64,000 nt of DNA from Kofleriaceae bacterium (GCA_041389925.1 JAWKQX010000006.1:407837-471836), one strand, 5' to 3'; positions 2,309-57,227 are shown, numbered from the stretch's first letter. Numbers and translations are program-made. Notes: a model not told the origin generated them from the letters alone.

Positions 2309-2548
2309 GCGTCGTCCGCGCGCCGTACCTCCAGCGCGCATGGAGGGAACAACGCGTCCCGCGAGCGTCACTCGCGGGGCGCGTTGGCGCGTCGCGACGT
2401 CGGGGGTGAGTCGCGCATGACACGGAAGAAGTACGCGGTCACCTTCTCGCACTTGTCGCCTGTTTTTTGCGCGCGTCGAGCTTTTCTCTGGCTGGGGTCC
2501 CCTCAGGCCAACTACGGTCGAGTCAGCTGAGGTTGGAGGGAGGCTGCG

Positions 2549-35208: not shown

Positions 35209-35297
35209 GGTGAACCAGACGCGGTGAATATACGGGCAATCCTCCATTCTTGGCCACCCGCGAGGACGCACGAGGTCGGCGTGGAGCGACGCTTGCG

Positions 35298-35321
35298 CCG
35301 CCTCGGGCTCGATCCGCGGGA
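35298..35321 (+). promoter_or_regulatory. Candidate ECF-type promoter (GGAAC-N15-CGTC) upstream of divergent lipoprotein gene
   Basis: GGGAACaaggactggtatctaCGTCA on the plus strand about 80 bp upstream of the ATG at 35401. Resembles ECF -35 GGAAC / -10 CGTC architecture. Lies in the intergenic region divergent from the ECF sigma gene. Confidence 0.3.
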
Positions 35322-35400
35322 ACAAGGACTGGTATCTACGTCATCCAAGGGACCCACGATCGGCTGGTCGTGGCCTTCTCGCTTGCCTGGAGATCATTCG

Positions 35401-37138: not shown

Positions 37139-38227
37139 CTACGCGACGAGATCCTTCCAGCGCCGCAGGTACTCGATGAACTGCGGCGACACCGCGCGCG
37201 CCTCAAGCTCGGCGGCGGACATCGGTGGTCGGCGAGGCTGGTAGCCGGCGGCCTTGGCCTCGTCCGGCCAGTCGGGGTTGAGGATGGCGGCGCGCCCGAG
37301 CGCGACCATGTCCGCGCCGCGCTCGAGCGCGAGCTCGGCCTCGGCGGGCGACCAGATCGCGCCCGCCGTGACGATCGCGATCTCCGCGGGCAGCGCGGCG
37401 CGCAGGGCGGTCAGCGGGTGCTCGGCGGGCCGCTTCACCGTGGGCGCGTCCGCGTTCCACAGCGACGCGTGCAGGTAGTCCGCGCCGTCGTCGACGAGCT
37501 GCCGGGCGACCTCCAGCGACTCGTCCAGATCGAGGCCCTTGGTCGCGCTGAAGTCCTCCAGCGAGAGCCGCACCCCGACGAGGAAGCCGGCGGAGACCCG
37601 CGCGCGGACGGCGCGCGTCACCTCGCGCAGGAGGCGCGCGCGACCGGCCAGCGCGCCGCCCCAGCCGTCGCTCCGCTGGTTCATCGACGAGGAGAGGAAC
37701 TGCGTCAGCAGGTAGCCGTGGGCGCCGTGCAGCTCCACGCCCTGGAAGCCGGCGCGCTCGGCGCGCGCCGCGGCCGCCGCGAACTGCTCGATCACGCGCG
37801 CGAGATCCTCCTCGGTGGCGGGGCGCGGCACCTCGGCGCCGGGCGCGTCATCTTGGTAGGCGCTGGCGCTCCAGGGCTGGTGGCCGCTGTGCGCGCGCTT
37901 GGCGCGCATCCCGCCGTGGAAGAGCTGCACCAGGCCAAGGCCGCCGCGCGCGCGCAGCCGGGTCGCCAGCTCGGTGAGCCCGGGGAGCTGCGCGTCCTCG
38001 GAGATGCCCAGCTCCCCGGCCCACGCCTTGCCGTCCTGCGCGACGTAGGCGGCACACGTGATGATGGCGCCGAAGCCTCCGTCGACGCGGCGGGCCAGCC
38101 ACGCGAGCTCGACGGGGCCGAGCTCGCCGGTCGGCAGGCTCTGGCCGTTGGTCATCGGGGCCAGGGCGATCCGGTTGGGCGCGGTGACGCCGTTGCGGAA
38201 GGTGAGAGGGGTATGGAGCTTGGTCAT
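37139..38227 (-). CDS. NADH:flavin oxidoreductase / Old Yellow Enzyme family alkene reductase
   Basis: MTKLHTPLTFRNGVTAPNRIALAPMT ... ITCAAYV ... QLFHGG ... GFQGVELHGAHGYLLTQFLSSSMNQRSDGWGG is typical OYE. ATG at 38227. The upstream part of ORF 37139..39334 is off-frame. Confidence 0.8.
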   Translation of the reverse strand: MTKLHTPLTFRNGVTAPNRIALAPMTNGQSLPTGELGPVELAWLARRVDGGFGAIITCAAYVAQDGKAWAGELGISEDAQLPGLTELATRLRARGGLGLVQLFHGGMRAKRAHSGHQPWSASAYQDDAPGAEVPRPATEEDLARVIEQFAAAAARAERAGFQGVELHGAHGYLLTQFLSSSMNQRSDGWGGALAGRARLLREVTRAVRARVSAGFLVGVRLSLEDFSATKGLDLDESLEVARQLVDDGADYLHASLWNADAPTVKRPAEHPLTALRAALPAEIAIVTAGAIWSPAEAELALERGADMVALGRAAILNPDWPDEAKAAGYQPRRPPMSAAELEARAVSPQFIEYLRRWKDLVA

Positions 38228-38323
38228 CGCTGTGGGAGGAAGGTAGCGCACCCGCTCCCACGCGCCACCCGCGGCGCCGTCGCGCCGTCGCGTCGTCGCG
38301 CGAAGCCTGATACGCTCCGAGGC

Positions 38324-39313
38324 ATGCGCCGGCACCTTGTCGCTCTCGCGTTGGCAACCGCCGCCGTGGTCTCCTCGGACGCTCGCGCCGACGTCAACGA
38401 TCTCGTGCTCTCGCGGCTCGCGCGCCGGGTGGAGCAAGGGGGCATGGTCACCGCGGTGATCCCGCAGAGCCGTGACCTGCGCGCGCTCGCCTCGCAGCTC
38501 GGCGTGGTGCTCGCGCCGCACCTGCTGACGCCAGCGGACACGCTCGGCTTCGGCGGCGTGCAGTTCTCCGTGGACCTCAGCACGACGCAGGTCGACCGCG
38601 ACGCGGCGTACTGGCGCGCCGCCGAGGGCAGCCCCGATCCCGACGGCACCGGCGGCGGCAAGCACACCGCCGGCTACCTCTCCACGATCGGGTTCTTCGC
38701 GCGCAAGGGCATGTGGTTCCCGGCGCCGGCGATGGAGCTGGGCGGCGGCGCGGTGCACCTCAAGGACTCGAACATGTGGGCGGGGCAGCTCTACGCCAAG
38801 CTCGCGCTGCAGGAGGGCTATCACGACTACCCGCTGCCCAGCCTGGCGCTGCGCGGCGCGGTGTCGCGCTTGATGACCCAGCGCGAGCTCGATCTCACGG
38901 TCATCTCGCTCGACGCATCCCTCTCCAAGCACATCGGCATCCTGGGGACGTGGAACCTCAACCCGTACGCCGGCTGGAACACCCTGCTCATCATCCCGCG
39001 CAGCGAGGTCATCGATCCGACGCCCGAGATTGATCCGCTCGAGCCGGGGATGCCCAACGATCGCGCGCTCAACTTCGTCTTCAAGGATCAGGACCCGATC
39101 TTGCGGCACCGCGTGTTCCTGGGCGCCAAGGCGCAGTTCGGGGCGGTGATGATCACCGTCGAAGGGCAGCTCGCGCTCGCCGGCACCTCGGTCGATGATC
39201 GAGGGGGCACCAGCGCGAAGTGTGAGGCGGTCTCGCAGACCGAGCAGTGTGACGCGCAGGACTCCGCGGCGAAGCAGCAGAGCTTGACGATCTCCGCCGG
39301 GCTCGAGTTCTAG
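38324..39313 (+). CDS. Secreted hypothetical protein, possible outer-membrane beta-barrel
   Basis: Signal peptide MRRHLVALALATAAVVSSDARA. Alternating amphipathic pattern. Terminal ... SLTISAGLEF with C-terminal Phe is typical of OMP beta-barrels. No catalytic motif. Confidence 0.5.
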   Translation: MRRHLVALALATAAVVSSDARADVNDLVLSRLARRVEQGGMVTAVIPQSRDLRALASQLGVVLAPHLLTPADTLGFGGVQFSVDLSTTQVDRDAAYWRAAEGSPDPDGTGGGKHTAGYLSTIGFFARKGMWFPAPAMELGGGAVHLKDSNMWAGQLYAKLALQEGYHDYPLPSLALRGAVSRLMTQRELDLTVISLDASLSKHIGILGTWNLNPYAGWNTLLIIPRSEVIDPTPEIDPLEPGMPNDRALNFVFKDQDPILRHRVFLGAKAQFGAVMITVEGQLALAGTSVDDRGGTSAKCEAVSQTEQCDAQDSAAKQQSLTISAGLEF

Positions 39314-39466
39314 GAGCCCGCCCGGCTCGCGCACCGCGACGACGTGCGAGCTCGGCGCGGAGGCGGAGATCCTCTGCGGGGCCGGTCTCAGCGACGAGGC
39401 ACGGTGCGAGTTTCTCCGCGAGCGAAGCCGCTATAACCATCGCGCGGTACGGCCGAGTCAACGAGC

Positions 39467-42400
39467 GTGCTGCCTCGTCGACTCCCCTCACATCCTCTCC
39501 TCGTAGGTGCTCTCTTCCTCGCCGTCGCCGCGTGCGGAGGCGGCGGCGATCCCGACCAGCCGAGCGTCGTCGAGCAGGCGGTGTGGAGCAACGGCGACTT
39601 CGAGAGCGACCCCATCGGCACCACGCCGCCGACCGGGTGGACGCTCACCTCGAACCTCCACCCCGGGATCACCGACACGCGACCGTCGCCGCAGACCTTC
39701 TCCAGCCTCAACCTCGCGGCGGGTGGAACGCTGATGACCGCGGTCGTCGGTGGCGCGCCGGAGTCGCAGCTCGATCTCGATCTGCTCACCAACGGCGTGC
39801 TGCGCTTCCCCAAGTACGGGCAGCGCGCGACGAGGGTCAACTCCAACGCGGCGAACGCGGGCACCTCGCGCAACGTCAACACGCTCAAGCAGACCATGAC
39901 GGTGAGCCTGGGCGACGTCGATCCCGTCGACAACAAGGTCCACGTGCGCTTCGCGGTGGCCCCGGTGCTGGAGAACCCCGGCCACTCGTACACGTCGCAG
40001 CCGTACTACTTCGTCCGGCTGCAGAACCTGACGAAGGGCCTCACCGTCTACCAGGACTTCAACGCCAGCGGGCAGCCTGGCGTGCCGTGGCAGAACTTCA
40101 CGGACACGAGCGGGCAGGCGGCGCAGTTCACCAACTGGCAGCTCGTCGACGTCTCCCCGGGGGACACCCAGCTCGCGGTGGGGGACCAGGTGGAGCTGAT
40201 GGTCATCGCCGCGGGCTGCTCCGCCGGGGGTCACTGGGGGCACGTCTACGTCGACGCGGTGGGCTCCGGCGTACCGGGCCTGTACTCGTGGGCGACCGGC
40301 CCGCAGCTCGCCAACGCGGGCTCCACGATCACCTACACGCTCAACTACAAGAACGGCGGCACCACCACGACCAACGGCACCCGGCTCGACTTCGTCACAC
40401 CGCCGGACACGACGTTCCAGTCGGTGAGCCTCGGCGCCGCGTGCACCACGCCCGCCGTGGGCGCCACCGGCACGGTGAGCTGCCCGATCGGCACGCTCGC
40501 CAACGGCTCGACGGGCTCCTTCCAGGTCACCGTGAACATCCCGCCGGCGACGCCGAACGGTACCGTCATCCTCAACGGCAACTACTCCATCTACGCCACC
40601 GGCATCTCGGCGCTGATCGGACCCAAGGTCTTCACCACCGTCACCAACTCGGTGTCGTACGCCGACCTCGGCGTGACGATCAGCGACGGCGTCGCGGCGA
40701 TCGCGTGGGGTCAGCCCACCACGTACACCATCGACGTGACCAACGACGGTCCGGTGGCGGCGCCGGTGGCCACGGTGACCGACACCATGCCGGCGCAGCT
40801 CACCGGCGTGACCTGGACGTGCGCGGCCAGCGGCGGCGGCACGTGCACCGCGTCGGGGAGCGGCAACATCAATGACGCGGTGTCGCTGCCGGTCGGCGCG
40901 CACCTCGTCTACACCGTGTCGGCGGCGATCATCGCCGGCTCGGGGAGCGGCCAGGTGATCAACACCGTCACGGTCGCCACCGGCGGCGGGGTCACCGATC
41001 CCGACACCACGAACAACACCGCGCTCGACACCGACGCGATCGGCACGCTGCGCACGCTGACCTTGACCAAGCTGGGGACGGTCTCGGGCGGCCTGGTCAG
41101 CTCGGTGCCGACCTCGATCTCGTGCGGCACCGGCTGCGCCAGCGACAGCGGCCAGTTCCTCGACGGCTCGCAGGTGGTCCTCACCGCGGCGCCGGTGGTG
41201 GGCGCGACCTTCACCGGCTGGGGTGGGGCCTGCTCCGGCACCGCGACGAGCTGCACCGTGACGATGACCGGCGACCAGAGCGTGACGGCGTCCTTCACCG
41301 GCGCGCCCGCGGCGATCAGCGTGGTCGGCGGCGGAGCGCAGAGCACGACGATCAACACCGCCTTCGCCTCGCCGCTGCAGGTCCTGGTGACGGACGCCGG
41401 GGGCATCCCGGTGCCCGGCGCCGCGGTCGCCTTCGCCGCGCCGGGCAGCGGCGCCTCGGCGACCTTGAGCGCGACCACCGCGACCACCAACGCCGCCGGT
41501 CTCGCCAGCGTCACCGCGACGGCGAACGGCACCGCCGGGACCTACTCGGTCACCGCCACGGTCAGCGGCGTGCCCCCGGCCTCGTTCTCGCTGAGCAACG
41601 TCGGCATCCCGACCTCGATCAGCGTGGTCAGCGGCAGCGGCCAGAGCGCCACGGTGAACACCGCCTTCGCGGCGCAGCTCGTCGCGGTGGTCCGAGACGC
41701 GGCGAGCCAGCCCGTCCCCGGGATCACCGTCACCTTCACCCCGCCGGCCAGCGGCGCCGGGGCGACGCTGAGCGCGGCGACCGCGGTCACCAACGCCAGC
41801 GGCCAGGTGAGCCTCAACGCGACCGCGAACACCGTCGCGGGCTCCTACGCGGTGACCGCCTCGGTCGTCGGCGTGGTGACGCCGGCGAGCTTCGCGCTCA
41901 CCAACACGGCCGGCGCGCCCGCGACGTTGACGTTGCTCGGCGCGACGACGCGCTCGGCGACGGTCGACGCGTCGCTGGGGACCTTCACCGCCCAGGTGAC
42001 CGATGCGTTCGGCAACCCGGTGTCGGGCGTCACCTTGACCTTCAGCGCGCCCGGCAGCGGCGCGACCGCGCTGCTCAGCAGCGGCACCTCCGTGACCAAC
42101 GCGAGCGGCCAGGCCAGCATCACCGCCACCGCGGGCGCCGTCGCCGGCTCGTACGCCCTCATCGTGAGCGGCACGGGCCTCGCCTCGCAGAGCTTCGCGC
42201 TCACCAACACCGCGGGCGCGCCGGCGTCGCTGGCCATCGTCAGCGGCGACAACCAGCAGGCCACCGTCGACGGCGCGTTCGCGCCGCTCGTCGTCGTGGT
42301 GCGCGACGGCCACGGGAACCCGGTGCCCGGCGCCACCGTGAGCTACGCGGCGCCTGGCGCCGGCGCCACCGCGGTCGTCACGCCGTCCGCGATCACCGAC

Positions 42401-45400
42401 GCCGCGGGGCAAGCGAGCGCCGCCGCGACGGCGGGCGCGATCGCCGGGGCGTTCGCCGTCACCGCCTCGGTCACCGGCGTCACGCCGGTGTCGTTCGCGC
42501 TGGAGAACCTCGCCGGCGCGCCGGCCGCGATCTCGATCGCCTCCGGCTCTCCGCAGACCACCGCGGTGACGACCGCCTTCTCCGCGCCGCTGGTGATCCG
42601 CGTCGTCGATGTGCACGGCAACGCCGTGCCGGGCGCCGCCGTGACGTTCACGCCGCCGGGCAGCGGCGCCTCCGCGAGCCTCAGCGCCACCACGGTGAGC
42701 ACCGACGCCAGCGGCCTCGCGCAGAGCGACGCCACCGCCAACACGGTCGCCGGCAGCTACGCGGTCACCGCCTCGGTCGCCGGCGTGGCCACCCCCGCGA
42801 GCTTCGCGCTCACCAACACCGCGGGTCCGGCGACCACGCTGACCCTGCTGGCGCCGACCTCGCGCACCTCGGTGGTCACCGGCTCGCTCGGCACGCTCAC
42901 CGCGCAGCTCCGCGATGCGTTCGGCAACCCGGTGCCCGGCGCGACGGTGTCGTTCAGCGCGCCGGCGTCCGGCGCCACCGCGACGCTCAGCGCCGGCTCC
43001 GCCACGACCAACGCGAGCGGCCAGGCCAGCATCACCGCGACCGCGGGCACCATCGCCGGCGCGTTCGCGATCACCGTGAGCGCCACCGGCACCGTCTCGC
43101 AGACCTTCCTGATCACGACGACGCCCGGCGCGCCCGCATCGCTGTCGATCGTCAGCGGCGATCCGCAGAGCGCGGTGGTCGACGCCGCGTTCGCGCCGCT
43201 CGTCGTGGCGGTGCATGACGCCCACGGCAACGTGGTGCCGGGGGCGACCGTGACCTTCACCGCGCCCGGCGCCGGCGCCACGGCGAGCGTCGACGGCAGC
43301 GCGGACACCGACGGCCTGGGCGTGGCGACCGCCGCGGCCACCGCGGGCACCGTCGCCGGCAGCTACACGGTGGTCGCGTCGCTCGGCGCGCTCGCGCCGG
43401 TCTCCTTCACCTTGCAGAACCTGCCCGGCGCGCCGGCCTCGCTCGCGCTCGTCGGTGGCGGCGATCAGAGCGCCGTGGTCACCACGCCGTTCGGCTCCCC
43501 GATCGCGGTGCGCGTGCTCGACGCGCACGGCAACCCGGTGCCCGGCGCGACCGTCACCTTCACCCCGCCGGGCGCCGGCGCCTCCGCGACCCTCAGCGCG
43601 TCGGTCGTGACCAGCGACGCCAGCGGCGTCGCGCAGATCAGCGCGACCGCCAACACGGTGGCCGGCGCGTACGCGGTCGGCGTCGCCGTCGCCGGCGTGG
43701 CGACCCCGGTGAGCGTGGCGCTCACCAACACCCCGGGCGCGCCGGCGTCGATCAGCGTGACCTCCGGCGGCGCGCAGAGCACCGTCATCGAGACCGCGTT
43801 CCCGCTCCCGCTCGGGGTGATCGTCCAGGACGCGCATGGCAACCCGGTGCCCGGCGCGACCGTCTCGTTCTCCGCGCCGGCCAGCGGCGCCACCGCGGCG
43901 CTGTCCACCTCGACGCTCACCACCGACGGCGGCGGCCTCGCGCAGAGCTCCGCTACCGCGAACTCGATCTCGGGCAGCTACCTGATCACGGCCGCGGTCG
44001 CGGGCGTCGTCACCTCGGCGCAGTTCAGCCTGCGCAACACCGCGGGCGTCGCGGCGACCATCGACATCGTCTCGGGCGGCGCGCAGGAGACCGTGGTCGC
44101 CACGCCGTTCCCGCAGCCGCTCGTCGTCCTGCTGCGCGACGCCTCGGGGAACCCGGTGCCGGGCGTCTCGGTGCGCTTCGCCGCGCCGCCGAGCTCGCCG
44201 AGCGCCGCGCTCTCCGCGGAGGTCGCGCTGAGCGATGACGCCGGCCTCGCGACCATCACCGCGACCGCGGACCCGCGGGCGGGCAGCTACGACGTCACCG
44301 CCGAGCTGCGGCCCGGCGTGACCGCGACCTTCTTCCTGCGCAACCTGCCCGGCGCGCCCGCGCAGCTCCGCGTCGGCGCGGCCAGCTCGCCGCAGTCCGC
44401 CACCGTGCTGACCGACTTCGTCGAGACCTTGCTGGTGCGCGTCGAGGACGCGTTCGGCAACCCGGTGCCGGGCGTGACCGTCAGCTACCAGGCGCCCGGC
44501 GCCGGCGCGACCGCGACCCTGACCTCCTCGACCGCCGTCAGCGACACGTTCGGCGAGTGCGAGGTCGGGGCCACCGCGGGTGCGGTGACCGGCCTCTACC
44601 TGGTGACCGCGACGGTGTCCGGCGTCGCCGACGCGGCCGTCTTCGCGCTCACCAACCTCGCCGGCGCCCCGACCTCCGTGGTCGCGGAGGCCGGCGCGGC
44701 GCAGGCGACCGAGGTGGACACCGACTTCGCCGAGCCGCTCACCGTGCGCGTGCTCGACGCGCTCGGCAACCCGGTGCCGTCCGCGGTGGTCAGCTTCGCG
44801 GCGGCCGCCACGCCGGCGACCGCGGCCCTGTCGGCGTCGTCGGTGGCCACCGACGGCGAAGGCCTCGCCTCGGTGATCGCCCACGCGAGCACCGTGACCG
44901 GCAGCCACGTCGCGACCGCGGTCGTCGACGGCGCCGCCACCCCGGTGATCTTCTCGCTCACCAACACGCCCGGCGCGCCGGACTCGGTCACCGTCGGCGC
45001 GGTGGCCTCGCCGCAGCAGGCGGAGGTGACCACCGCGTACCCGCACGACCTGCTGGTGCGCGTCGCCGACCGCTTCGGCAACGCGATCCCCGGCGTCGAG
45101 GTCACCTACGCGGCTCCGGACAGCGGCGCCACCGGCGTCCTGTCGTCGACCACCTCCACCAGCGATGACGCCGGGCTCGCGTCCGTCGGGATCGTCGCGG
45201 GGACGCAGGCCGGCCCGTTCACGGTGACGGCCTCGGTCGCCGGCGTGCTCCTCTCGGCGCAGTTCCAGCTCACCAACCTCGCCGGCGCGGCGCACACGCT
45301 GTCGCTGGTCTCCGGCGACGGTCAGGTGACCACCGTCGACACGGCGTTCGCGGAGCTGCTCCTGGTGCGCGTGACCGACATCTTCGGCAACCCGGTGGCG

Positions 45401-47545
45401 GACGAGCAGGTCACCTTCACCGCCGAGGGCAGCTCGGCCACCGCCAGCCTGGGCACGCTCAGCGTGGCCACCGACGCGCAGGGCCTGGCGAGCACCTCGG
45501 CGACGGCCAACACCGTCTCCGGCAGCTACCTGGTCCGCGCCACCTCGGCGCAGGGTGCCACGCCGGTGGCGTTCACGCTGCGCAACGCCGCGGACGTGCC
45601 CGCGACGATCATCGTCGCCCCCGCCGCTACGCCGCAGAGCGCCGAGGTGCTGCACGCGTACACCGCGCCCCTGGAGGTGACCGTCCTGGATCGCTTCGGC
45701 AACCCGGTGCCCGGCGCGGTCGTGACCTACACGAGCGCAACGGGCCCCGGCGCCTCGCTGTCCGCCGCGCAGGTGACCACCGATGGCACCGGCGCCGCCC
45801 AGGTGCTCGCCATCGCCGACGAGGTCGCGGGCGCGTATCAGGTCCAGGCCACCGTGGACGGCGTCGCCACCCCGGCGACGTTCGAGCTGACCAACACCGC
45901 GTCCGCGCCCGGCCGCGTCGTCGTCGCGCGCGGCGACGGCCAGAGCGCGATGGCGCTGGTCGCGTACGCCGAGCCGCTGGTGTTCCTCGTGCTCGACGGC
46001 TTCGGCAACCCGGTGCCGGGCGTCAGCCTGAGCGTCACGATGCCGAGCGACGGTCCGCGCGCCGCGCTGACCACGCAGGTGATCGGCTCCGACGCGGCCG
46101 GCGAGGTCGGCCTGCAGCTCCAGGCCGCCGATGAGCTCGGCACGTTCCAGATCTCCGCGACCGCTCCCGGCGTGGCCGTGGCCGCGACCGCGTCGCTGTC
46201 GGTGACGCCGATCCCGACCGAGGTGACCGCCAGCGCGCCAAAGAGCGTCGCGGTGGACCAGCCGGCGCAGGTCACCATCGAGGTGTCGGCCCCCGTCGGT
46301 ACGCCCGCGGGTGAGCTCGAGATCGTGGTCGACGGCGGAGCCGCGGTGGTGTCCGCGACCCTGAAGGGAGGCCGCGTCGTCGCCCCGGTGCCGCTGAGCG
46401 TGACCGGCGCGCACACGCTCGCCGTGCGCTACCCGGCGCAGGGGCCGTTCGAGGCCAGCGAGACCGCGGCGTTCACCATCGACGCGACCGGCGACTCGGG
46501 CACGCTCTCGGGCTCCGGCGGCTGCGATAGCGGCGGCGGCGGCTCGCTCGCGCTCGGCCTGCTCGTGCTCGCGTTCGCGGGGGCTCGTCGGCGGCGCGCC
46601 GGGGCCGCCGCCTCAGCGCTCGCGCTCGCGCTCGTCGCGTGGGCCGGCTCGCCGGCGCGCGCGCAGGAAGACACCACGCGCTCGATCAACCGCTTCCACG
46701 CCGCCTCCGCCGAGAGCGACTGGTTCGCGCTCGACTCGCTGGCGTTCGACGGCGCGCTCGACGTCGCCTTCGCGCAGACCTGGGACTACGCGCACCGCCC
46801 GCTGGTGGTGTACGACGCCGACGGCACCGCCCGCGCCGCGGTGATCCGCAACGCCTTCGTCGCGCACACCGGCGCGAGCGTGACCCTCCGCGAGCGCTTC
46901 CGCCTCTCCACGTCCGTGCCGATGGCGGTGTTCCAGAACGGCGATGACGGGACCTTCAACGGCGAGCCCCTCGCCGGTCCGAAGTTCGCCTTCGGCGACA
47001 TGCTGCTCGCCGGTGACGTGCGCGTGCTCGGCGCCGCCGGCGCCCCGCTCCGCGCCGCGGTCGGCCTGCGGGTGAGCTTGCCCACCGGCTCGCGGACGCA
47101 CTACATGAGCGACAGCAAGTTCGCGCTGGAGCCGCGCGGCATGATCGCCGGCAGCCGCGGCGCGCTCGAGTACGCCGCGGAGCTCAGCCTGGCGCTGCGC
47201 AGCGAGACCTCGTTCGCCGGGGAGCCCTTCGGCAGCGAGCTCCGCTACGGGGCGAGCTGCGGGGCGCGGCTCCTGGAGCGCCGGCTCCTGATCGGCCCTG
47301 AGCTCAGCGGCGCGCTCCCGCTCACCAGCGGCAGCGCCACCGGCCACCCGACGGAGCTCGGCGTGGGCGCTCACTACGCGGTGGCGCCGGACGTGCTGCT
47401 CGGCGCGGGGCTGTCCGCGGGTCTGGTCAACGCCGTCGGCACGCCCGATCAGCGCCTCTTCCTCTCGGTCTCGTGGTCGCCGACCGCGGTCGCGGCGCGG
47501 CGGCGCGCGTCCACCGACGCCATCGACGCCGTCGCCCGTCGCTGA
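39467..47545 (+). CDS. Giant cell-surface lipoprotein adhesin: N-terminal domain, 2x DUF11, InlB B-repeat, about 16 Big_1 (bacterial Ig-like) repeats, MYXO-CTERM-like motif, then C-terminal beta-barrel-like domain
   Basis: GTG start. Lipobox LFLAVAAC. DUF11-like segments (GSTITYTLNYKNGG ... ; QPTTYTIDVTNDGPVAA ... DPDTTNNTALD). InlB-B-like segment (TLTKLGTVSGGLVSS ... CTVTMTGDQSVTASFT). About 99-aa repeats with consensus TNTAGAPASLxIVSGDxQSAxVxTAFAxPLVVxVxDAxGNPVPGAxVTFxAPxSGAxAxLSxxxxxTxAxGxAxxxATANTVAGSYxVTASVxGVxTPxxFxLTN. GCDSGGGGSLALGLLVLAFAGARRRR at 46511..46600. About 315 further residues in frame. Confidence 0.8.
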   Translation: MLPRRLPSHPLLVGALFLAVAACGGGGDPDQPSVVEQAVWSNGDFESDPIGTTPPTGWTLTSNLHPGITDTRPSPQTFSSLNLAAGGTLMTAVVGGAPESQLDLDLLTNGVLRFPKYGQRATRVNSNAANAGTSRNVNTLKQTMTVSLGDVDPVDNKVHVRFAVAPVLENPGHSYTSQPYYFVRLQNLTKGLTVYQDFNASGQPGVPWQNFTDTSGQAAQFTNWQLVDVSPGDTQLAVGDQVELMVIAAGCSAGGHWGHVYVDAVGSGVPGLYSWATGPQLANAGSTITYTLNYKNGGTTTTNGTRLDFVTPPDTTFQSVSLGAACTTPAVGATGTVSCPIGTLANGSTGSFQVTVNIPPATPNGTVILNGNYSIYATGISALIGPKVFTTVTNSVSYADLGVTISDGVAAIAWGQPTTYTIDVTNDGPVAAPVATVTDTMPAQLTGVTWTCAASGGGTCTASGSGNINDAVSLPVGAHLVYTVSAAIIAGSGSGQVINTVTVATGGGVTDPDTTNNTALDTDAIGTLRTLTLTKLGTVSGGLVSSVPTSISCGTGCASDSGQFLDGSQVVLTAAPVVGATFTGWGGACSGTATSCTVTMTGDQSVTASFTGAPAAISVVGGGAQSTTINTAFASPLQVLVTDAGGIPVPGAAVAFAAPGSGASATLSATTATTNAAGLASVTATANGTAGTYSVTATVSGVPPASFSLSNVGIPTSISVVSGSGQSATVNTAFAAQLVAVVRDAASQPVPGITVTFTPPASGAGATLSAATAVTNASGQVSLNATANTVAGSYAVTASVVGVVTPASFALTNTAGAPATLTLLGATTRSATVDASLGTFTAQVTDAFGNPVSGVTLTFSAPGSGATALLSSGTSVTNASGQASITATAGAVAGSYALIVSGTGLASQSFALTNTAGAPASLAIVSGDNQQATVDGAFAPLVVVVRDGHGNPVPGATVSYAAPGAGATAVVTPSAITDAAGQASAAATAGAIAGAFAVTASVTGVTPVSFALENLAGAPAAISIASGSPQTTAVTTAFSAPLVIRVVDVHGNAVPGAAVTFTPPGSGASASLSATTVSTDASGLAQSDATANTVAGSYAVTASVAGVATPASFALTNTAGPATTLTLLAPTSRTSVVTGSLGTLTAQLRDAFGNPVPGATVSFSAPASGATATLSAGSATTNASGQASITATAGTIAGAFAITVSATGTVSQTFLITTTPGAPASLSIVSGDPQSAVVDAAFAPLVVAVHDAHGNVVPGATVTFTAPGAGATASVDGSADTDGLGVATAAATAGTVAGSYTVVASLGALAPVSFTLQNLPGAPASLALVGGGDQSAVVTTPFGSPIAVRVLDAHGNPVPGATVTFTPPGAGASATLSASVVTSDASGVAQISATANTVAGAYAVGVAVAGVATPVSVALTNTPGAPASISVTSGGAQSTVIETAFPLPLGVIVQDAHGNPVPGATVSFSAPASGATAALSTSTLTTDGGGLAQSSATANSISGSYLITAAVAGVVTSAQFSLRNTAGVAATIDIVSGGAQETVVATPFPQPLVVLLRDASGNPVPGVSVRFAAPPSSPSAALSAEVALSDDAGLATITATADPRAGSYDVTAELRPGVTATFFLRNLPGAPAQLRVGAASSPQSATVLTDFVETLLVRVEDAFGNPVPGVTVSYQAPGAGATATLTSSTAVSDTFGECEVGATAGAVTGLYLVTATVSGVADAAVFALTNLAGAPTSVVAEAGAAQATEVDTDFAEPLTVRVLDALGNPVPSAVVSFAAAATPATAALSASSVATDGEGLASVIAHASTVTGSHVATAVVDGAATPVIFSLTNTPGAPDSVTVGAVASPQQAEVTTAYPHDLLVRVADRFGNAIPGVEVTYAAPDSGATGVLSSTTSTSDDAGLASVGIVAGTQAGPFTVTASVAGVLLSAQFQLTNLAGAAHTLSLVSGDGQVTTVDTAFAELLLVRVTDIFGNPVADEQVTFTAEGSSATASLGTLSVATDAQGLASTSATANTVSGSYLVRATSAQGATPVAFTLRNAADVPATIIVAPAATPQSAEVLHAYTAPLEVTVLDRFGNPVPGAVVTYTSATGPGASLSAAQVTTDGTGAAQVLAIADEVAGAYQVQATVDGVATPATFELTNTASAPGRVVVARGDGQSAMALVAYAEPLVFLVLDGFGNPVPGVSLSVTMPSDGPRAALTTQVIGSDAAGEVGLQLQAADELGTFQISATAPGVAVAATASLSVTPIPTEVTASAPKSVAVDQPAQVTIEVSAPVGTPAGELEIVVDGGAAVVSATLKGGRVVAPVPLSVTGAHTLAVRYPAQGPFEASETAAFTIDATGDSGTLSGSGGCDSGGGGSLALGLLVLAFAGARRRRAGAAASALALALVAWAGSPARAQEDTTRSINRFHAASAESDWFALDSLAFDGALDVAFAQTWDYAHRPLVVYDADGTARAAVIRNAFVAHTGASVTLRERFRLSTSVPMAVFQNGDDGTFNGEPLAGPKFAFGDMLLAGDVRVLGAAGAPLRAAVGLRVSLPTGSRTHYMSDSKFALEPRGMIAGSRGALEYAAELSLALRSETSFAGEPFGSELRYGASCGARLLERRLLIGPELSGALPLTSGSATGHPTELGVGAHYAVAPDVLLGAGLSAGLVNAVGTPDQRLFLSVSWSPTAVAARRRASTDAIDAVARR
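41290..46200 (+). repeat. Tandem array of about 16 near-identical about 297-bp coding repeats (Big_1 units) inside the giant adhesin gene
   Basis: DNA-level recurrence of blocks such as caccaacaccgcgggcgcgccggcgtcgct ... cggcaacccggtgcccggcgcgac ... at about 297-bp period. Protein-level repeat consensus as given for the adhesin. Confidence 0.7.
46511..46600 (+). other. MYXO-CTERM-like sorting motif (Gly-Cys, Gly-rich, hydrophobic helix, RRRR) located internally in the adhesin ORF
   Basis: SGSGGCDSGGGGSLALGLLVLAFAGARRRR fits the tripartite MYXO-CTERM architecture. It is not at the C-terminus. An in-frame GTG at 46565 followed by RRRRAGAAASALALALVAWAGSPARA/QE would make a canonical Sec signal peptide. 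Confidence 0.5.
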
Positions 47546-47611
47546 TCGGGCCGCCCTGCACTTCGATCTGGATCGCGTCGCGCGCTGTGATAGATCTGAA
47601 GGAACGCTCGC

Positions 47612-48481
47612 GTGTCGTCTGGTGGGCGGGAACGAGAGGATCTCAGCGTGTCTCACGAACAAGGTCGGGCGCAGGGCAGCTTCGCCGCGGTGGTGCTCAT
47701 CGCGGGGCTCGGGATCTCGGGCGCGCGCGCCGCGCCCGCGCCGCGCGACGTCGAGAACCCGTTTCCGCTCACCAACTCCACGCCGGTGTCCCGCGAGCGC
47801 AGCGAGCCGCCCGCGGAGCCGGAGGTCTACGAGGTGGAGGTCCAGGACACCGAGCGGAGGGACGAGTTCGGCGAAGCGCCGCCCGTCGCCGAGGCTCCTC
47901 GGCGCCGGAGCCGGCTGCAGGACTACCAGCCGCCGCCGCCGGAGCCGCTCGTGCGGATCACCGCCTCTGGCGGGTACGATGACGGCGCGGCGCCGATCGT
48001 CCAGGTGCGCTATGACGACGGCACCGAGGAGATGCTCCACGCCAACCGCGGGCCATACGTCGCTGCGGGGGTCGCGGTCAACGCGCTCACCCTCGGCGAC
48101 TTGCGCGTCGGCGCCCACGGCGCCGCGTCGCTGAAGTGGGCCCAGCTTCGCGCCGAGGGCGGCTCGGTCACCTACACCGCGGCTTCGCTCGAGGCCAAGG
48201 CGCGCGCGGAGCTGCGCTACCTGCGCCTCGCGTGCGGTATGACGTACACCGTGGCCTCGTCGATCTCCGGCACTGGAACGCTGCACGAGCTCAACGCCGA
48301 TCTCGAGCGCTCGCTCGGCCTGGTCGGCGAGCTCGGGCTGGTCTCAAACGCCCTGGTCAACGGGGGCCGTACGCGCCTCACCGGAGGCGTCCGCTTCATC
48401 AAGCAAGACCTGACGGATCGCGCGACCGGTGCGACGGTCTCCGCGAACTCGATGGGCTTCTTCGGCGGCGTCGAGTACTGA
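47612..48481 (+). CDS. Secreted hypothetical protein, beta-rich
   Basis: Internal signal-like segment FAAVVLIAGLGISGARAAPA. Pro/Glu-rich spacer. Beta-strand-patterned C-terminal domain ending FFGGVEY. Start uncertain. Confidence 0.4.
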   Translation: MSSGGREREDLSVSHEQGRAQGSFAAVVLIAGLGISGARAAPAPRDVENPFPLTNSTPVSRERSEPPAEPEVYEVEVQDTERRDEFGEAPPVAEAPRRRSRLQDYQPPPPEPLVRITASGGYDDGAAPIVQVRYDDGTEEMLHANRGPYVAAGVAVNALTLGDLRVGAHGAASLKWAQLRAEGGSVTYTAASLEAKARAELRYLRLACGMTYTVASSISGTGTLHELNADLERSLGLVGELGLVSNALVNGGRTRLTGGVRFIKQDLTDRATGATVSANSMGFFGGVEY

Positions 48482-48662
48482 TCTTACGCAGGCTCACCTG
48501 GGTTGCCTCGCCGCGCTTCGCCTGATGCGCCTGATGCGTGTGACGCGCGTGATGCGCGAGCCTTCGCTGCGTACTCGTCTAGGGCGTCCGGGACCGGCCT
48601 CCGCCGCGCCTTGGCCTCGCGCGCCAGGCTGTGCGGGGGCGGGTCGAGCGGGGGCCGCGCGC

Positions 48663-50804
48663 TCAGCGGAGCTGCGCGGGCGACGTGACCGGCGTGGCGC
48701 TGGCCTGCTCGCCCGCCGACGCCTCGGCCTTGGAGGGGCGCTTCGGGGTGGCGTCCTCGCGCTCCTCGTCGCGCTCCTCGTCGCGCTCCTCGCGCGCCGC
48801 ATCGTCTTCCGCGTCGGGGGCGACCTCCACCTTCTCGGCGTCGCGGCCGACGCGCCCGGTGACGCCGCGCGCCTTGTCGTGGCTCACCTTACCGCGCCGG
48901 GCCTTGGGCATCTGCTTCCACTGCGCCGCCGCGCGCTCCGTGCGCGTGCGGTCCACGACGCGGTACACCACGATCGCCTCGCCGGGCTTGAGCACCGTCT
49001 TGGGCGAGAGGTGGTTCACGCGCGCCAGGTCGGACGGCTTGAGCCCGAACTTCTTGCCGATCGCCTCGAAGGACTCCTCTTTGTCGGCGACGTAGCGGAC
49101 GCGCTCACGCCCCACGCGGTGCTCGAGCAGGTCCAGGTGCTCCGGCGAGCCGCGGGTGACGATGGTGAGCTTGTCGTCCTCGAGGAACGTCACGTTGGCG
49201 GGCGGCTTTTGGGCCTTGGGCAGCCACACCGCCAGCACCATCCGCGGGTGCAGGTTGGCCTCCCGGTCGAGCCCGTTCCAGCGCGCGAGCTCGGCCGGCT
49301 TGACGTCCAGCGCCTTGGCGATGCCCCAGAGCGTGTCGCCGATGATCACGCGGTAGAAGCGCCGCACGCGGCCGGGCACGCGCGCCGCGGCGTCGGGCAG
49401 GGCGACCACGAGCGACTCGCCGGCCTGCTGGTCCACGCCGGACTCGTGGAGGTCGGCGCGCGCCGCCGTGCGGTTCTGCGCCCGCTGCGCCGCGGACACG
49501 CGCGGCACCACCAGCACCGTGCCGCCTCCCATCTCCGAGTCATCCTTGATCTCGTTGAGCTCGCGCAGCCGGCGGCGCGAGATCCCGAACGTCTTCGCCA
49601 CGTCCTCGAAGCGCTCGCCGTAGGCGACGACGTACGCGTCGTAGCCGTCCCACTCGCTCTGCAGATCGGCGAGCCGCTTGGCGAACGTCGCCTTGGCGCC
49701 GCGCGGCACGCGGACGACGTAGTTCTTGACGTCTGGCGGGGTGCGGCTGCGGCGGAGCTGCGGGTTGAGCCGCTTGACGCGCTCCGAGGTGGTGCCGGCC
49801 GCCTTGGCCACCGTCGAGAGCTGCACGGAGACCGGCACCGTCACCTCGTCCCACACCTCCGGGGCGTCGGCCTTGACGTCGGCGAAGCCGAACAGCTCCA
49901 GGTTGTGCCCCACGATCGCCACCGCGAGCGCCTTGGGCACGTACAACGTCGCTCCCCACGCCAGCGCGTTCTCGTACAGGCAGAGCTGCCAGTAGTCGTT
50001 GGTGTTGTAGCGCGCGATCGATCGCAAGATCGCGCCGTAGCCCGCGTTGTACGCGGCCATCGCCAGGTGCCAGTCGCCGAAGCGCTGGTAGAGATCCTTC
50101 CAGTAGTCGATGGCGGCGATCGTCGAGCGCAGCGGATCGCGGCGCTCGTCGACCCAGCGGTTCTGCGTCAGCCCGTAGATCCGCCCGCCCGCCGGCATGA
50201 ACTGCCACAGCCCGGCGGCGCCTACCGACGACGAGTCTCCCGGATCGAACGACGACTCGATCATCGCGACGTAGAGCAGATCGAGCGGCAGCCCCGCCGC
50301 CTGGAGCCGGTCGAGGATGAAGTCCTTGTAGCGCCCTTGCGCCTCCAGCCAGCCCCTCATGATGTTGCGGCCGCGGCGATCGTTCTTGTAGAACTCCAGG
50401 TACTCGATCAGCCGAGGCGTCCACCGCACCGGCAGATCCGGCAGCTCGGCGTCGTCGAGCCACGCCAGGTCGGCGCGGAGGTCGCTGGGCTTGCGCACCT
50501 CCCCGCCGGCCATCGGCTCCAGCGAGCTGCGCGCCTCGCCGTCCCGCCAGGGAGTCCCGCGCGTGGGGGGAAACAGCTCCAGCTCGAGGAGGCGGAGCTG
50601 CTGGTGCGGCGGCACGCAGTCCTGCCCGAGCGGGCAGCCGCGGACCGCGCGCCGGCCGTCGGCCGCCTGCTCGAGCTCCACGCGCGCCGGCGCGAGGGGC
50701 GGCTGCGTCTGTACGCCGGGGTGGCGCTGCGCGACCGCGTTCGGGAGCCACGCGCCCAGGCACAGGGCGCACACCAAGCATCGGAGCCACATGCCCCAGA
50801 CCAT
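48663..50804 (-). CDS. Membrane-bound lytic murein transglycosylase D-like (SLT domain plus LysM repeats)
   Basis: Signal peptide. SLT catalytic region (VAMIESSFDPGDSSSVGAAGLWQFMPAGG ... AYNAGYGAI). Three or more LysM-like repeats (YVVAYGERFEDVAKTFGISRRRLRELN ; YRVIIGDTLWGIAKALDVKPAELARWN ; YVADKEESFEAIGKKFGLKPSDLARVN). Charged Glu/Asp-rich C-terminus. Confidence 0.8.
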   Translation of the reverse strand: MVWGMWLRCLVCALCLGAWLPNAVAQRHPGVQTQPPLAPARVELEQAADGRRAVRGCPLGQDCVPPHQQLRLLELELFPPTRGTPWRDGEARSSLEPMAGGEVRKPSDLRADLAWLDDAELPDLPVRWTPRLIEYLEFYKNDRRGRNIMRGWLEAQGRYKDFILDRLQAAGLPLDLLYVAMIESSFDPGDSSSVGAAGLWQFMPAGGRIYGLTQNRWVDERRDPLRSTIAAIDYWKDLYQRFGDWHLAMAAYNAGYGAILRSIARYNTNDYWQLCLYENALAWGATLYVPKALAVAIVGHNLELFGFADVKADAPEVWDEVTVPVSVQLSTVAKAAGTTSERVKRLNPQLRRSRTPPDVKNYVVRVPRGAKATFAKRLADLQSEWDGYDAYVVAYGERFEDVAKTFGISRRRLRELNEIKDDSEMGGGTVLVVPRVSAAQRAQNRTAARADLHESGVDQQAGESLVVALPDAAARVPGRVRRFYRVIIGDTLWGIAKALDVKPAELARWNGLDREANLHPRMVLAVWLPKAQKPPANVTFLEDDKLTIVTRGSPEHLDLLEHRVGRERVRYVADKEESFEAIGKKFGLKPSDLARVNHLSPKTVLKPGEAIVVYRVVDRTRTERAAAQWKQMPKARRGKVSHDKARGVTGRVGRDAEKVEVAPDAEDDAAREERDEERDEEREDATPKRPSKAEASAGEQASATPVTSPAQLR

Positions 50805-50971
50805 AGGCAGATCGGCCGTCTCGCTCCAACTTTTCCCCGTCCGGCCGCGCCGGCGTGGCCCGCCGCGAACCGTGCGTACCTACGGGCTCCCCGGACGGAA
50901 CTGCCGCTTGCTTGCTGCCGCCTGGCGGCAATGGTGCTACATTCCAGGCCTTTCAAGTACAGGAGCCCTAC

Positions 50972-51226
50972 ATGCCTGGCATGGGCGAACTTCTCATTAT
51001 TCTGGTCATCGTGATGCTGATTTTCGGAGCGGGGAAGCTTCCCGCGATCGGCGACTCGCTTGGCCGCAGCATCAAGAACTTCAAGCGCGCCACCGCGGGC
51101 GAGGACGAGATCGAGGTGAAGAAGAAGGCCGAGCTCACCAGCAAGCGAGCCGCCGAGCTCGAGGCTGGCGAGGAGGCCGAGGACGCGGAGATCGTGCAGA
51201 AGCGCAAGGTCAAGAAAGAGGCGTAG
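50972..51226 (+). CDS. tatA: Twin-arginine translocase subunit TatA
   Basis: [40 protein letters not shown] is the TatA/E TM helix plus amphipathic helix signature. AGGAG RBS 6 nt upstream of the ATG. Charged Lys/Glu-rich tail. Confidence 0.85.
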
Positions 51227-55756: not shown

Positions 55757-55873
55757 GGCGGCAGGGTACACGAATCCGCCGCGCTGACGACCGCGCGAGG
55801 TCCCGGCGACTTGGCGCTGACTTCTAGCGAGGCGCGTCTTGCTCAACCTGTCTGACAGTGGCAAGAGTCCTGG

Positions 55874-57061: not shown

Positions 57062-57227
57062 GCCCGCGGCGCCTCGTCGCGGGGGAGCGCGCGCCGGGCG
57101 CGCCCACGACGGCGCTGCTCCCAGCAAGCGAGGCGAGTTCGCCTCACCTTCTCGATCGCGCGCGGGCGGAGCGCGCGCCGAGGGCGCCCCGCGCGGCGCC
57201 AACGACTGCCCCGCGCGTGGAGCCTCG

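Follow-up and report, generated by a model that had tools for sequence, protein, structure and literature searches.

An Ig-repeat lipoprotein and a predicted TraB-like outer-membrane barrel encoded in one open reading frame of a Kofleriaceae bacterium

Introduction

In Myxococcus xanthus, proteins with a MYXO-CTERM sorting tag need the type II secretion system (T2SS); an internal position of the tag is rare, and tags located in mid-protein stay functional (Guo, Haft and Wall, mBio 2025, PMC11980579). One protein with such a tag is MXAN_5598, in which an internal MYXO-CTERM is followed by an outer-membrane (OM) beta-barrel and OmpA. Its N-terminal part was proposed to be processed and surface anchored, and the protein was read as a fusion of TraA with a TraB-like protein, a layout that Guo, Haft and Wall describe as a proposal only, without testing (PMC11980579). 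The genes traA and traB are translationally coupled through a 4-base overlap and share the same mutant phenotype (PMC3325183), while a 1:1 stoichiometry was reported for the two proteins and an AlphaFold complex sets the proximal head of TraA on the TraB barrel (bioRxiv 10.1101/2025.04.25.650704).

Here, a 64,000-nucleotide stretch of Kofleriaceae DNA, the window, was analyzed. It encodes a fused adhesin and barrel, a layout that is already known from MXAN_5598 and has barely been studied, and of which the window protein is a further case. Compared by description, both proteins combine a large N-terminal adhesin region, an internal MYXO-CTERM and a C-terminal OM beta-barrel in one ORF. MXAN_5598 carries OmpA past its barrel, whereas only 20 aa and no OmpA follow the barrel in the window protein, the gene for which, unlike MXAN_5598, is located on a lineage-specific segment flanked by an OM protein (OMP) gene and a lytic transglycosylase gene. 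To our knowledge, TraA/TraB, a MYXO-CTERM receptor and its barrel partner, is the only studied example of a cassette that pairs a MYXO-CTERM protein with a TraB-like barrel. Like the window protein, it combines a MYXO-CTERM surface protein with an OM barrel from the NF033763 family that has a signal peptide before it. However, TraA starts with a type I signal peptide and contains a variable, PA14-like domain as well as Cys-rich repeats, whereas in the window a lipoprotein containing DUF11 and Big_1 domains is the passenger, and TraB possesses TSP3 repeats and OmpA, whereas the window barrel has neither and scores far under the TraB cut-off. Kin recognition and membrane exchange are features of TraA/TraB, and no sign of either was seen for the window protein.

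Domain architecture of the adhesin gene

The product of the adhesin ORF (Table 1) is exactly MEZ4363474.1, listed by NCBI as 'Ig-like domain-containing protein [Kofleriaceae bacterium]', and GC at third codon positions is 0.97 over the entire frame, C-terminal part included. An initial annotation of this DNA had described a 2692-aa lipoprotein with an N-terminal signal, two DUF11 domains, an InlB B-repeat, about 16 Big_1 repeats, a MYXO-CTERM-like motif and a barrel-like C-terminal domain, and all of these elements were recovered. The protein starts with VLPRRLPSHPLLVGALFLAVAAC, which reads as a lipobox with Cys as residue 23; a lipobox is also present in the fused homologues P0129, P0135, P0136, P0139 and P0164 and in the unfused partner at L017. 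Residues 1-620 show 63-79% identity across L011, L012, L014 and L016, and the N-terminal domain at about residues 37-280 gave no match in a Pfam search. Pfam assigned two stretches to DUF11 (PF01345; NCBIfam match TIGR01451) and 16 stretches to Big_1 (PF02369, E 4.7e-127), and the InlB-type model TIGR02543 of NCBIfam matches weakly. An assembly artefact is an unlikely origin for the array, as the Big_1 units have diverged in DNA, with a best identity between units of 72%. The match of the last Ig domain to Big_3_5 (PF16640) reaches 29.7 bits, under the Pfam cut-off of 35.5, and the motif RYPAQGxF/YxAS of this region is kept in fused homologues and in the L017 unfused partner. The Ig-repeat passenger comprises about 2330 aa.

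Table 1. Features of the adhesin-barrel locus, in window coordinates
Feature	Position	Strand	Basis
Lineage-specific segment (adhesin and orphan ORF) between two convergent core genes	39314..48662		synteny
Adhesin-barrel precursor ORF, 2692 aa + stop	39467..47545	+	coding frame
N-terminal lipoprotein signal peptide, lipobox VAAC, Cys23	39467..39535	+	sequence reading
Conserved N-terminal domain without family match, ~aa 37-280 (approximate boundary)	39575..40300	+	conservation
DUF11 x2, ~aa 280-519 (best stretch 400-519; first boundary approximate)	40304..41023	+	PF01345, TIGR01451
Divergent InlB B-repeat (Flg_new_2), aa 555-611	41129..41299	+	PF18998, E 1.3e-9
Big_1 (Invasin_D3-like) Ig array, ~16 domains, period ~100-103 aa	41315..46186	+	PF02369, unit-end motif spacing
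Big_3_5 Ig domain, membrane-proximal, aa 2256-2338, adjoins tag	46232..46480	+	PF16640
Internal MYXO-CTERM-type sorting tag: GTLSGSGGC(2353)DSGGGG, TM helix SLALGLLVLAFAGA, RRRR(2374-2377)	46499..46597	+	TIGR03382
Internal Sec-type signal peptide, AGAAASALALALVAWAGSPARA, predicted SPase I site ARA/QE after residue 2399	46598..46663	+	sequence reading
TraB-like 12-stranded OM beta-barrel (predicted), aa 2400-2672, ends SVSWSP	46664..47482	+	structure model, NF033763
Arg-rich helical tail, 20 aa, + stop	47483..47545	+	absent from six closest homologues
Downstream orphan ORF, 277 aa: signal peptide, Pro/Glu-rich linker, beta-rich C-terminal half	47648..48481	+	= R3B48_25090

An internal sorting tag and a second signal peptide

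The tag is the sole MYXO-CTERM motif in the window, spans aa 2345-2377 and contains a Gly-rich motif with the invariant Cys, a hydrophobic helix and an Arg cluster. The older model TIGR03382 scores 20.4 bits, over its cut-off of 15.85, and TIGR03901, the model originally suggested as a check, 15.6 bits, under its cut-off of 20. The tag is not C-terminal, with 315 residues after the RRRR cluster; an internal signal peptide follows it directly in frame and precedes the barrel, in the same position relative to it as the N-terminal signal peptides of standalone homologues. The initial annotation had missed both the internal position of the tag and the signal peptide behind it. An in-frame GTG (~46565) inside the first TM helix, without a Shine-Dalgarno sequence 5' of it, might in theory serve as an additional start, for a barrel precursor of its own. 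Genes for a myxosortase and a T2SS were not found in the 64-kb window, and the Pfam-scanned ORFs (~40 kb) contain no such protease. The succession of tag and signal peptide suggests that one ORF would give two separately exported proteins, the barrel not being covalently tethered to the passenger.

The C-terminal barrel

According to a structure model built on 4 sequences (pLDDT 65), the C-terminal module of the adhesin ORF is a real OM beta-barrel. At the sequence level it has no match in Pfam or PDB; the TraB model NF033763 matches it with E 9.9e-15 over profile positions 3-299 of 522. Since this match reaches 53.5 bits and the TraB cut-off is 700 bits, the barrel is best regarded as a paralogous relative and not as TraB itself. 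Its nearest structural matches are FapF and COG4313 (Phenol_MetA_deg, PF13557), both of them 12-stranded OM channels, and docking is therefore not the sole possible role of the barrel; unlike the window barrel, these channels are not encoded with MYXO-CTERM partners. Neither OmpA nor TSP_3 has a Pfam match in the adhesin ORF, and an OmpA module past the barrel is absent in the closest relatives as well. The Arg-rich tail occupies the spot where TSP3 and OmpA come next in TraB-type relatives, and the six closest homologues end at W-x-P without it.

The initial annotation rightly set this arrangement apart from inverse autotransporters. Intimin has an N-terminal barrel from a different family, through whose pore the passenger stays attached, whereas the window barrel is C-terminal, belongs to a TraB / Phenol_MetA_deg-like family and has a sorting tag, a predicted cytoplasmic loop and a signal peptide between itself and the passenger. 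Assignment to the inverse autotransporters (intimin/invasin, type Ve) was accordingly rejected, the barrel lying behind a TM hairpin and signal peptide and Pfam giving no match; for classical autotransporters (type Va), both a contiguous C-terminal Autotransporter beta-domain and a Pfam Autotransporter match were missing. The 'dedicated export' that had been suggested initially could, if limited to the fused barrel, take a type V-like form in which the 12 strands thread their own passenger through the outer membrane or assist it. This is decidedly unlikely: besides the lack of either Pfam barrel match, the T2SS carries MYXO-CTERM proteins to the surface (PMC11980579), in unfused versions the two parts work from separate genes, and the two membrane helices and cytoplasmic Arg cluster predicted between passenger and barrel argue against a lasting join after export.

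Fused and unfused relatives

The junction of tag, signal peptide and barrel was present in all 32 fused relatives read, although their passengers are very different (Big_1 arrays, Asp-rich repeats, Cys-rich repeats or Ig repeats). The fusion was detected in 27/153 cluster representatives and close matches, plus 3 truncated gene calls, and in 6/6 GTDB loci from Kofleriaceae, Haliangiales, Polyangiaceae and other Myxococcota assemblies. In each fused relative, GGC leads into a TM helix and an Arg-rich loop of 2-42 aa with net positive charge, behind which a second hydrophobic segment precedes the barrel; this second segment after the loop was parsed in 26/30 fused relatives and identified by eye in the rest. 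OmpA appears to follow the barrel in 14 of the 27 fused representatives, as judged from post-barrel tails of 164-332 aa, OmpA itself being confirmed by Pfam in P0139 and P0156 only.

The source of the window is a metagenome-assembled genome and the adhesin gene of relative L011 contains a frame break, which raises the question of whether two genes were joined by an error in sequencing or assembly, or in a pseudogene. Such an artefact is scarcely conceivable, as the in-frame junction is common to >30 independent sequences of 40-70% identity from several sources, codon-position GC is coding-like through the junction, and separate Logan assemblies carry an identical upstream end of the locus, in which adhesin residues 1-847 reach the contig end. 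A precursor that stays uncut, held by a two-helix hairpin in the inner membrane and by its barrel in the outer one, would be an envelope-spanning tether with a periplasmic Ig array, and would agree with a tag located away from the C-terminus, where sorting enzymes normally meet tags. It is nevertheless very unlikely: a small-x-small (SPase I-type) site lies behind the second helix in 26/30 parsed relatives, in two-gene equivalents the tag is terminal and the signal peptide N-terminal, mid-protein sorting tags stay functional per Guo et al. (PMC11980579), and the periplasm is too small for a 2300-aa fibre.

Unfused counterparts were also identified. At L017, a Big_1 lipoprotein gene with a terminal MYXO-CTERM is followed, after a 45-nt gap, by a TraB-like gene, and the same order of a MYXO-CTERM gene and a TraB-like gene occurs at L019, L020 and L021. 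Standalone TraB-like genes thus lie behind a MYXO-CTERM gene in 4/6 contexts, and no MYXO-CTERM neighbour was found for the other 2/6. The standalone proteins P0144 and P0145 match TraB at full length (E ~1e-60), with barrel, TSP3 and OmpA. It might be argued that the window barrel is an ordinary OM channel of the COG4313/FapF-like type, for instance for hydrophobic molecules, that happens to be encoded downstream of surface-protein genes and became joined to the adhesin, with neutral effect, when a stop codon was lost, adhesin and barrel not interacting. We regard this as unlikely, since fusions as well as adjacent gene pairs combine such barrels with many unrelated passengers, the entire signal peptide is kept in every fusion, and TraA function genetically needs TraB (PMC3325183).

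Genomic context and flanking genes

The gene upstream of the adhesin probably encodes an OMP, as initially annotated, its product being predicted as a 10-stranded OM barrel, and it has >900 homologues. At the orthologous Kofleriaceae loci L005, L007, L009 and L010, the order is Oxidored_FMN / upstream OMP gene / SLT-LysM / TatA / PHB_acc_N, which is also the order of the flanking genes in the window, and the adhesin is missing from all four. The distance from the OMP gene to SLT-LysM is 13-80 nt in L009 and L005, and one small gene lies between them in L007. Downstream of the adhesin, the orphan ORF (identical to R3B48_25090) has its likely start at GTG 47648, with GAGAGGA before it. It had been annotated as a secreted, beta-rich protein ending FFGGVEY, and its product does have this ending, a signal peptide and a beta-rich C-terminal half. 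The homologue search returned only the self match, and no Pfam match was obtained even at E<=10.

The initial annotation had seen in the two flanking barrel-type genes partners dedicated to exporting or anchoring the adhesin. The predicted upstream barrel and the secreted, beta-rich downstream ORF, co-directional with the adhesin and 102 nt past its stop, would suit such a three-gene system, which is extremely unlikely on comparative grounds: the upstream gene is fixed in core synteny without the adhesin, the downstream ORF matches nothing but itself and is absent from the other adhesin loci, and no co-conservation was found at eight of these. Loci L004, L011-L014, L016 and L018 contain no homologue of either flanking gene and have no neighbours in common, and L015 has no flanking-gene homologue on its 2.6-kb contig, which includes almost no flanking sequence. 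Neither flanking gene is considered to belong to the adhesin-barrel system. The idea of a dedicated anchoring arrangement falls for the flanking genes and holds for the fused barrel: homology to TraB and retention of the fusion in relatives make this barrel a probable dedicated partner of the fibre.

Proposed maturation and implications

As one gene comprises an Ig-repeat lipoprotein, an internal tag, a second signal peptide and a TraB-related barrel, we infer a fused TraA/TraB-type pair. We assign a probability of roughly 0.7 to the reading that the adhesin gene is the fused form of a cassette common in Myxococcota, a MYXO-CTERM surface protein plus a TraB-like OM barrel, and that its product is resolved and docked as follows. 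First, Sec would bring the precursor into the inner membrane with the passenger on the periplasmic side; the MYXO-CTERM helix would cross the membrane out-to-in, the Arg cluster would remain cytoplasmic and the following helix would restart export for the barrel. Next, three cuts would resolve the precursor: by LspA at Cys23, by a myxosortase (MrtX) at the tag, probably once Cys2353 is lipidated, and by signal peptidase I after Ala2399. The adhesin would then reach the surface via the T2SS, the route of M. xanthus MYXO-CTERM proteins, and BAM would put the barrel into the outer membrane. Finally, the barrel may serve as a 1:1 membrane dock for the membrane-proximal Ig domain of the adhesin, as predicted for TraA/TraB, so that one precursor, through myxosortase and signal peptidase I, would yield a stoichiometric adhesin-barrel pair. 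Since the ORF lacks a TSP3/OmpA module, it would give a pair without a link to the cell wall. With its N-terminal lipobox plus a lipid tag at the C-terminus, the fibre would be anchored at both of its ends, for which we know of no studied precedent in this pathway.

Extending this reading beyond a single locus is more tentative, and we place it at slightly less than even odds: TraB-like 12-stranded barrels may be general, dedicated OM partners of the MYXO-CTERM surface-protein class beyond TraA, and the fused genes may encode true envelope polyproteins that myxosortase and signal peptidase I convert into a fixed 1:1 pair. If true, a two-component surface organelle would arise from a single translation product, a route not demonstrated in bacteria.

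Frame assignment in a G+C-rich window

The G+C content of the window is approximately 72%, and real frames were told apart from shadow frames by codon-position G+C (see the table of features). Very long shadow ORFs arise from this high G+C content, and two of them, one antisense to the adhesin and one opposite the SLT gene, were rejected by this measure. Conservation of the sense strand also makes short antisense ORFs within the Big_1 array look 'conserved' from locus to locus. The product of the giant ORF is identical to MEZ4363474.1 (NCBI, 'Ig-like domain-containing protein'), and the proteins of the two flanking ORFs are identical to R3B48_25080 and R3B48_25090, recorded on a 543,886-bp contig in the MAG of a Kofleriaceae bacterium. 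A scan of positions 38000-49000 revealed no promoter-like sites and only three terminator-like sites, all on the minus strand, inside the adhesin ORF and at chance level.

Features of the window discussed in the text
Feature	Position	Strand	Remarks
CHAT/zf-HC2 protein	31581-35400	-	
Upstream gene	38324-39313	+	329 aa; codon-position G+C
Lineage-specific insertion	39314-48662		9.3 kb
Giant adhesin ORF	39467-47545	+	2692 aa; codon-position G+C
ORF antisense to adhesin	39488-46414	-	2308 aa; rejected, shadow frame
Arg-rich helical tail	47483-47542		20 aa
Downstream orphan ORF	47648-48481	+	277 aa; GTG start behind GAGAGGA
ORF opposite SLT gene	48429-51014	+	861 aa; rejected, shadow frame
SLT/LysM lytic transglycosylase	48663-50804	-	codon-position G+C
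M28/PD40/PDZ peptidase ORF	52940-57748	-	1602 aa
Overlapping frame 1	55856-57061	+	coding-like G+C
Overlapping frame 2	57036-58181	+	coding-like G+C

Two further observations concern more distant genes. The peptidase ORF is ~650 aa longer than its orthologues (~950 aa, in the related loci L005 and L009), and its Pfam matches begin near residue 980; since two plus-strand coding-like frames overlap its 5' part, the gene boundaries are uncertain here. The CHAT-domain protein contains an anti-sigma-type zinc finger (zf-HC2) and adjoins an ECF sigma-factor gene, a pairing that is also kept in related Kofleriaceae loci (L001, L005 and L009).

Flanking genes and the origin of the locus

The initial annotation proposed that the adhesin and two flanking barrel-type genes form one export and anchoring system. 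The upstream protein is indeed predicted to be a 10-stranded outer-membrane barrel, and the orphan ORF product, in which a signal peptide and a stretch rich in Pro and Glu precede ~170 beta-rich residues with FFGGVEY at the end, could plausibly be a small barrel. This three-gene reading is not supported, as the upstream gene belongs to a core synteny that lacks the adhesin, the orphan ORF yields only a self match among 5.8 billion clusters, and neither gene accompanies the adhesin in the other adhesin loci examined. Neither flanking protein matched any Pfam or NCBIfam model, even with the threshold relaxed to E<=10. The upstream gene has >900 homologues at 60-78% identity with two invariant cysteines (C300 and C309), holds a fixed place beside the SLT-LysM transglycosylase and TatA in Kofleriaceae (L005, L007 and L009), and looks like a core outer-membrane protein that is so far without a name. 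In the orthologous loci L005, L009/L010 (75-76% identity) and L007/L008 (63%), it is present without the adhesin, in the order Oxidored_FMN (or ECH_1), upstream gene, SLT-LysM, TatA, a ~260-aa protein, PHB_acc_N and an M28-PDZ peptidase or protein kinase. Because this core order is preserved on both sides in the window and the adhesin is absent from these loci, the interval between the two convergent core genes is a lineage-specific insertion; it contains only the adhesin and orphan ORFs, and its base composition is near that of the flanks.

The adhesin family is present in the loci L004, L011, L012, L013, L014, L016 and L018, in four of which the first 620 aa are 63-79% identical, and additionally in L015, a 2.6-kb contig with almost no flanking sequence. 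Within 10 kb, no adhesin locus has a homologue of either flanking gene or of the SLT gene, and apart from the near-identical pair L014/L016, no neighbours are common to these loci and the window or among the loci. The single same-strand ORF downstream of the adhesin in a relative, in L012, is unrelated to the orphan ORF. In L011 (1778-10834 of a MAG contig named tig000...), the N-terminal region of the adhesin occupies 1778-3664 and the stop-free barrel frame starts only at 6713, which indicates a frame break (pseudogene or sequencing error).

Domains of the adhesin and the internal tag

All adhesin elements listed in the initial annotation were recovered by Pfam, NCBIfam and sequence reading. 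These are an N-terminal lipobox with Cys23, two DUF11 repeats, one divergent InlB B-repeat (aa 555-611) and a Big_1 array of 16 stretches (E 4.7e-127) with overlapping Invasin_D3 matches, to which Pfam adds one Big_3_5 domain (aa 2256-2338) scoring slightly under the cut-off. DNA-level identity among the Ig units is <=72%, and this divergence makes a collapsed-repeat artefact unlikely. The adhesin also reaches 86.9 bits (cut-off 39.8) on TIGR04134, 'radical SAM-associated putative lipoprotein' (aa 740-797), with no single stretch passing alone; the score is probably summed Ig-repeat similarity, not true membership. For the MYXO-CTERM-like motif, the excised junction exceeds the cut-off of TIGR03382 (GC_trans_RRR / MYXO-CTERM; 20.4 versus 15.85 bits) but remains below that of TIGR03901 (15.6 versus 20).

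Residues 2345-2406 read GTLSGSGGC DSGGGG SLALGLLVLAFAGA RRRR AGAAASALALALVAWAGSPARA, followed by QEDTTRS, and thus hold a complete tag, in which a Gly-rich motif with Cys2353 precedes a helix and an Arg cluster. This tag is internal, not C-terminal, and is succeeded without stop codon or spacer by a segment that reads as a textbook Sec signal peptide, with the Arg cluster as the putative n-region, a 15-residue h-region and a predicted cleavage site between A-R-A and Q, directly after which the barrel follows. The topology read from the sequence is self-consistent, placing the passenger outside, helix 1 out-to-in, the arginines in the cytoplasm, helix 2 in-to-out and the barrel outside. A rival but unlikely reading of this arrangement is an uncut envelope tether. 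Internal MYXO-CTERM tags have been noted 'in rare cases', and for MXAN_5598 the N-terminal part was proposed to be processed and surface-anchored (PMC11980579); the words 'internal', 'fusion', 'fused', 'OmpA' and 'TraB' do not occur in Haft's in-silico myxosortase preprint.

Kinship of the barrel with TraB

The genes traA and traB, which encode a MYXO-CTERM receptor and an OmpA-domain protein, overlap by four bases and have identical mutant phenotypes (PMC3325183). TraB has been described as a signal peptide, outer-membrane barrel, TSP3 and OmpA; it co-localises 1:1 with TraA, whose membrane-proximal head is placed on top of the TraB barrel by AlphaFold, and OmpA-less TraB retains foci and adhesion with TraA while membrane exchange is lost (bioRxiv 10.1101/2025.04.25.650704). 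The window barrel matches the NCBIfam model NF033763 'outer membrane exchange protein TraB' with E 9.9e-15 over profile positions 3-299 of 522, at a score far under the 700-bit cut-off. For P0144 and P0145, two standalone homologues, the TraB match spans the full length (E ~1e-60), and both have the TraB architecture of barrel, TSP3 and OmpA. P0144 additionally passes the Pfam cut-off for Phenol_MetA_deg (COG4313 family), consistent with a fold search whose top matches include the 12-stranded outer-membrane barrels KdgM, NanC and the beta-domains of Hbp, EstA and NalP. When PDB sequences were searched with the barrel profile, no related solved structure emerged. Type V-like self-export, with the barrel exporting its own passenger, is a further rival but unlikely reading.

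The TSP3/OmpA module is absent from the window protein. A short Arg-rich helical tail follows the barrel, at the position where TSP3 and OmpA come in TraB-type relatives; the six closest homologues end exactly at W-x-P without it, and it may represent a remnant or extend a short way into the periplasm.

Recurrence of the fusion and its two-gene counterparts

A word-based search with the junction and barrel identified six relatives (49-71% identity) that share the layout where long enough, and a barrel-profile HMM search returned 2865 relatives at E<=1e-3 among 1.84 billion cluster representatives. Together with the top 147 of the latter, 153 sequences were examined. In 125 of the 153, the barrel occupies residues ~20-300 and immediately follows an ordinary signal peptide at the N-terminus; in most of these, TSP3 repeats and an OmpA domain come next. 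In 27 it is deeply embedded in proteins that reach 3239 aa, several of them truncated gene calls, and three further truncated calls keep tag remains. Every fused member read presents GGC, a helix, an R-rich loop and a second hydrophobic segment before the barrel. Using a crude parser, two hydrophobic segments split by a net-positive loop (2-42 aa; 2-10 Arg/Lys versus 0-3 Asp/Glu) were detected in 26/30 sequences, as was a small-x-small site after the second segment (26/30); the automatic parse missed 6/32 sequences through hydrophobicity thresholds, and the same features were seen there by eye. The passengers are mutually unrelated and include Big_1 arrays, Asp-rich calcium-type repeats (P0156, P0265), Cys-rich repeats (P0174, P0232), Ig-like repeats (P0266, P0267) and, as judged from its sequence, a probable Kelch/HYR protein (P0273). 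All six GTDB species-genome matches, labelled Myxococcales, Kofleriaceae, Haliangiales, Polyangiaceae (two) and Polyangiales, contain the fused ORF, with an additional OmpA domain in the three from Polyangiaceae/Polyangiales.

Since the junction is conserved across relatives, a sequencing artefact is excluded as the source of the fusion. The same conservation shows selection to keep the internal signal peptide; a neutral fusion is a less likely rival reading. One aberrant sequence, P0005 (426 aa, from a 1923-nt Logan contig), joins the first ~130 residues of the adhesin N-terminal domain in frame to the internal signal peptide and barrel, without the entire Ig array and the MYXO-CTERM tag, and may reflect a natural deletion or a chimeric assembly.

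Six standalone relatives were placed in genomic context, and four of these TraB-like genes lie directly downstream of, and on the same strand as, a gene with a canonical terminal MYXO-CTERM. In L017, a 1812-aa Big_1 lipoprotein ending in GGGGCAI...LLLVRRRRRAGRAG and a stop codon is separated from the TraB-like gene by a 45-nt gap with a ribosome-binding site. The partner is a 337-aa protein in L019 and a legume-lectin-domain protein in L020 (8-nt gap), and L021 has the same gene order. Two cases are unpaired, namely L022 and P0165, which consists of the barrel only and has a divergent gene upstream. The window gene is thus a fused form of a two-gene cassette that is widespread.

Proposed processing and implications

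The architecture, its conservation, the TraB homology of the barrel, the occurrence of both split and fused forms and the lack of a tie to neighbouring genes are established by these comparisons, and we assign the identity of the architecture a probability of roughly 0.85. The intramembrane protease myxosortase (MrtX) cuts MYXO-CTERM proteins, and their arrival at the surface requires the type II secretion system (PMC11980579). For the mechanism, we lean moderately towards processing and docking: Sec would insert the precursor so that two helices form a hairpin in the inner membrane, with cuts by LspA at the lipobox, by myxosortase at the internal tag (where Cys2353 is probably lipidated) and by signal peptidase I after Ala2399. 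The fibre would then reach the surface by the T2SS route, and the barrel would enter the outer membrane via BAM and dock the proximal Ig domain of the fibre 1:1. As the TSP3/OmpA module is missing, the adhesin-barrel pair should be mobile in the membrane, not pinned to peptidoglycan.

This kind of fusion is already known from a one-paragraph proposal on a single M. xanthus gene, from which the window locus differs in lacking the OmpA module; a literature search on MXAN_5598 found no further study of that gene. The present analysis adds that the fusion is recurrent and no one-off, that an intact internal signal peptide is always kept in the fusions, and that TraB-like barrels are frequently paired with MYXO-CTERM proteins of many types. 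For annotation, the large family of the upstream gene, probably outer-membrane proteins of Kofleriaceae, is unannotated, and giant fused genes, sometimes split or truncated by gene callers, presently carry no label beyond 'Ig-like domain-containing protein' or 'OmpA-like protein'. The fused form also offers a clean test of whether a C-terminal sorting tag works inside a polypeptide and whether a downstream signal peptide can restart export. The role of TraB beside TraA has so far only been modelled, and here the fusions serve as a natural 'Rosetta stone': a TraB-like barrel is fused to many unrelated MYXO-CTERM passengers or encoded directly after them, a distribution which argues that this barrel may be a generic dock for MYXO-CTERM surface proteins.
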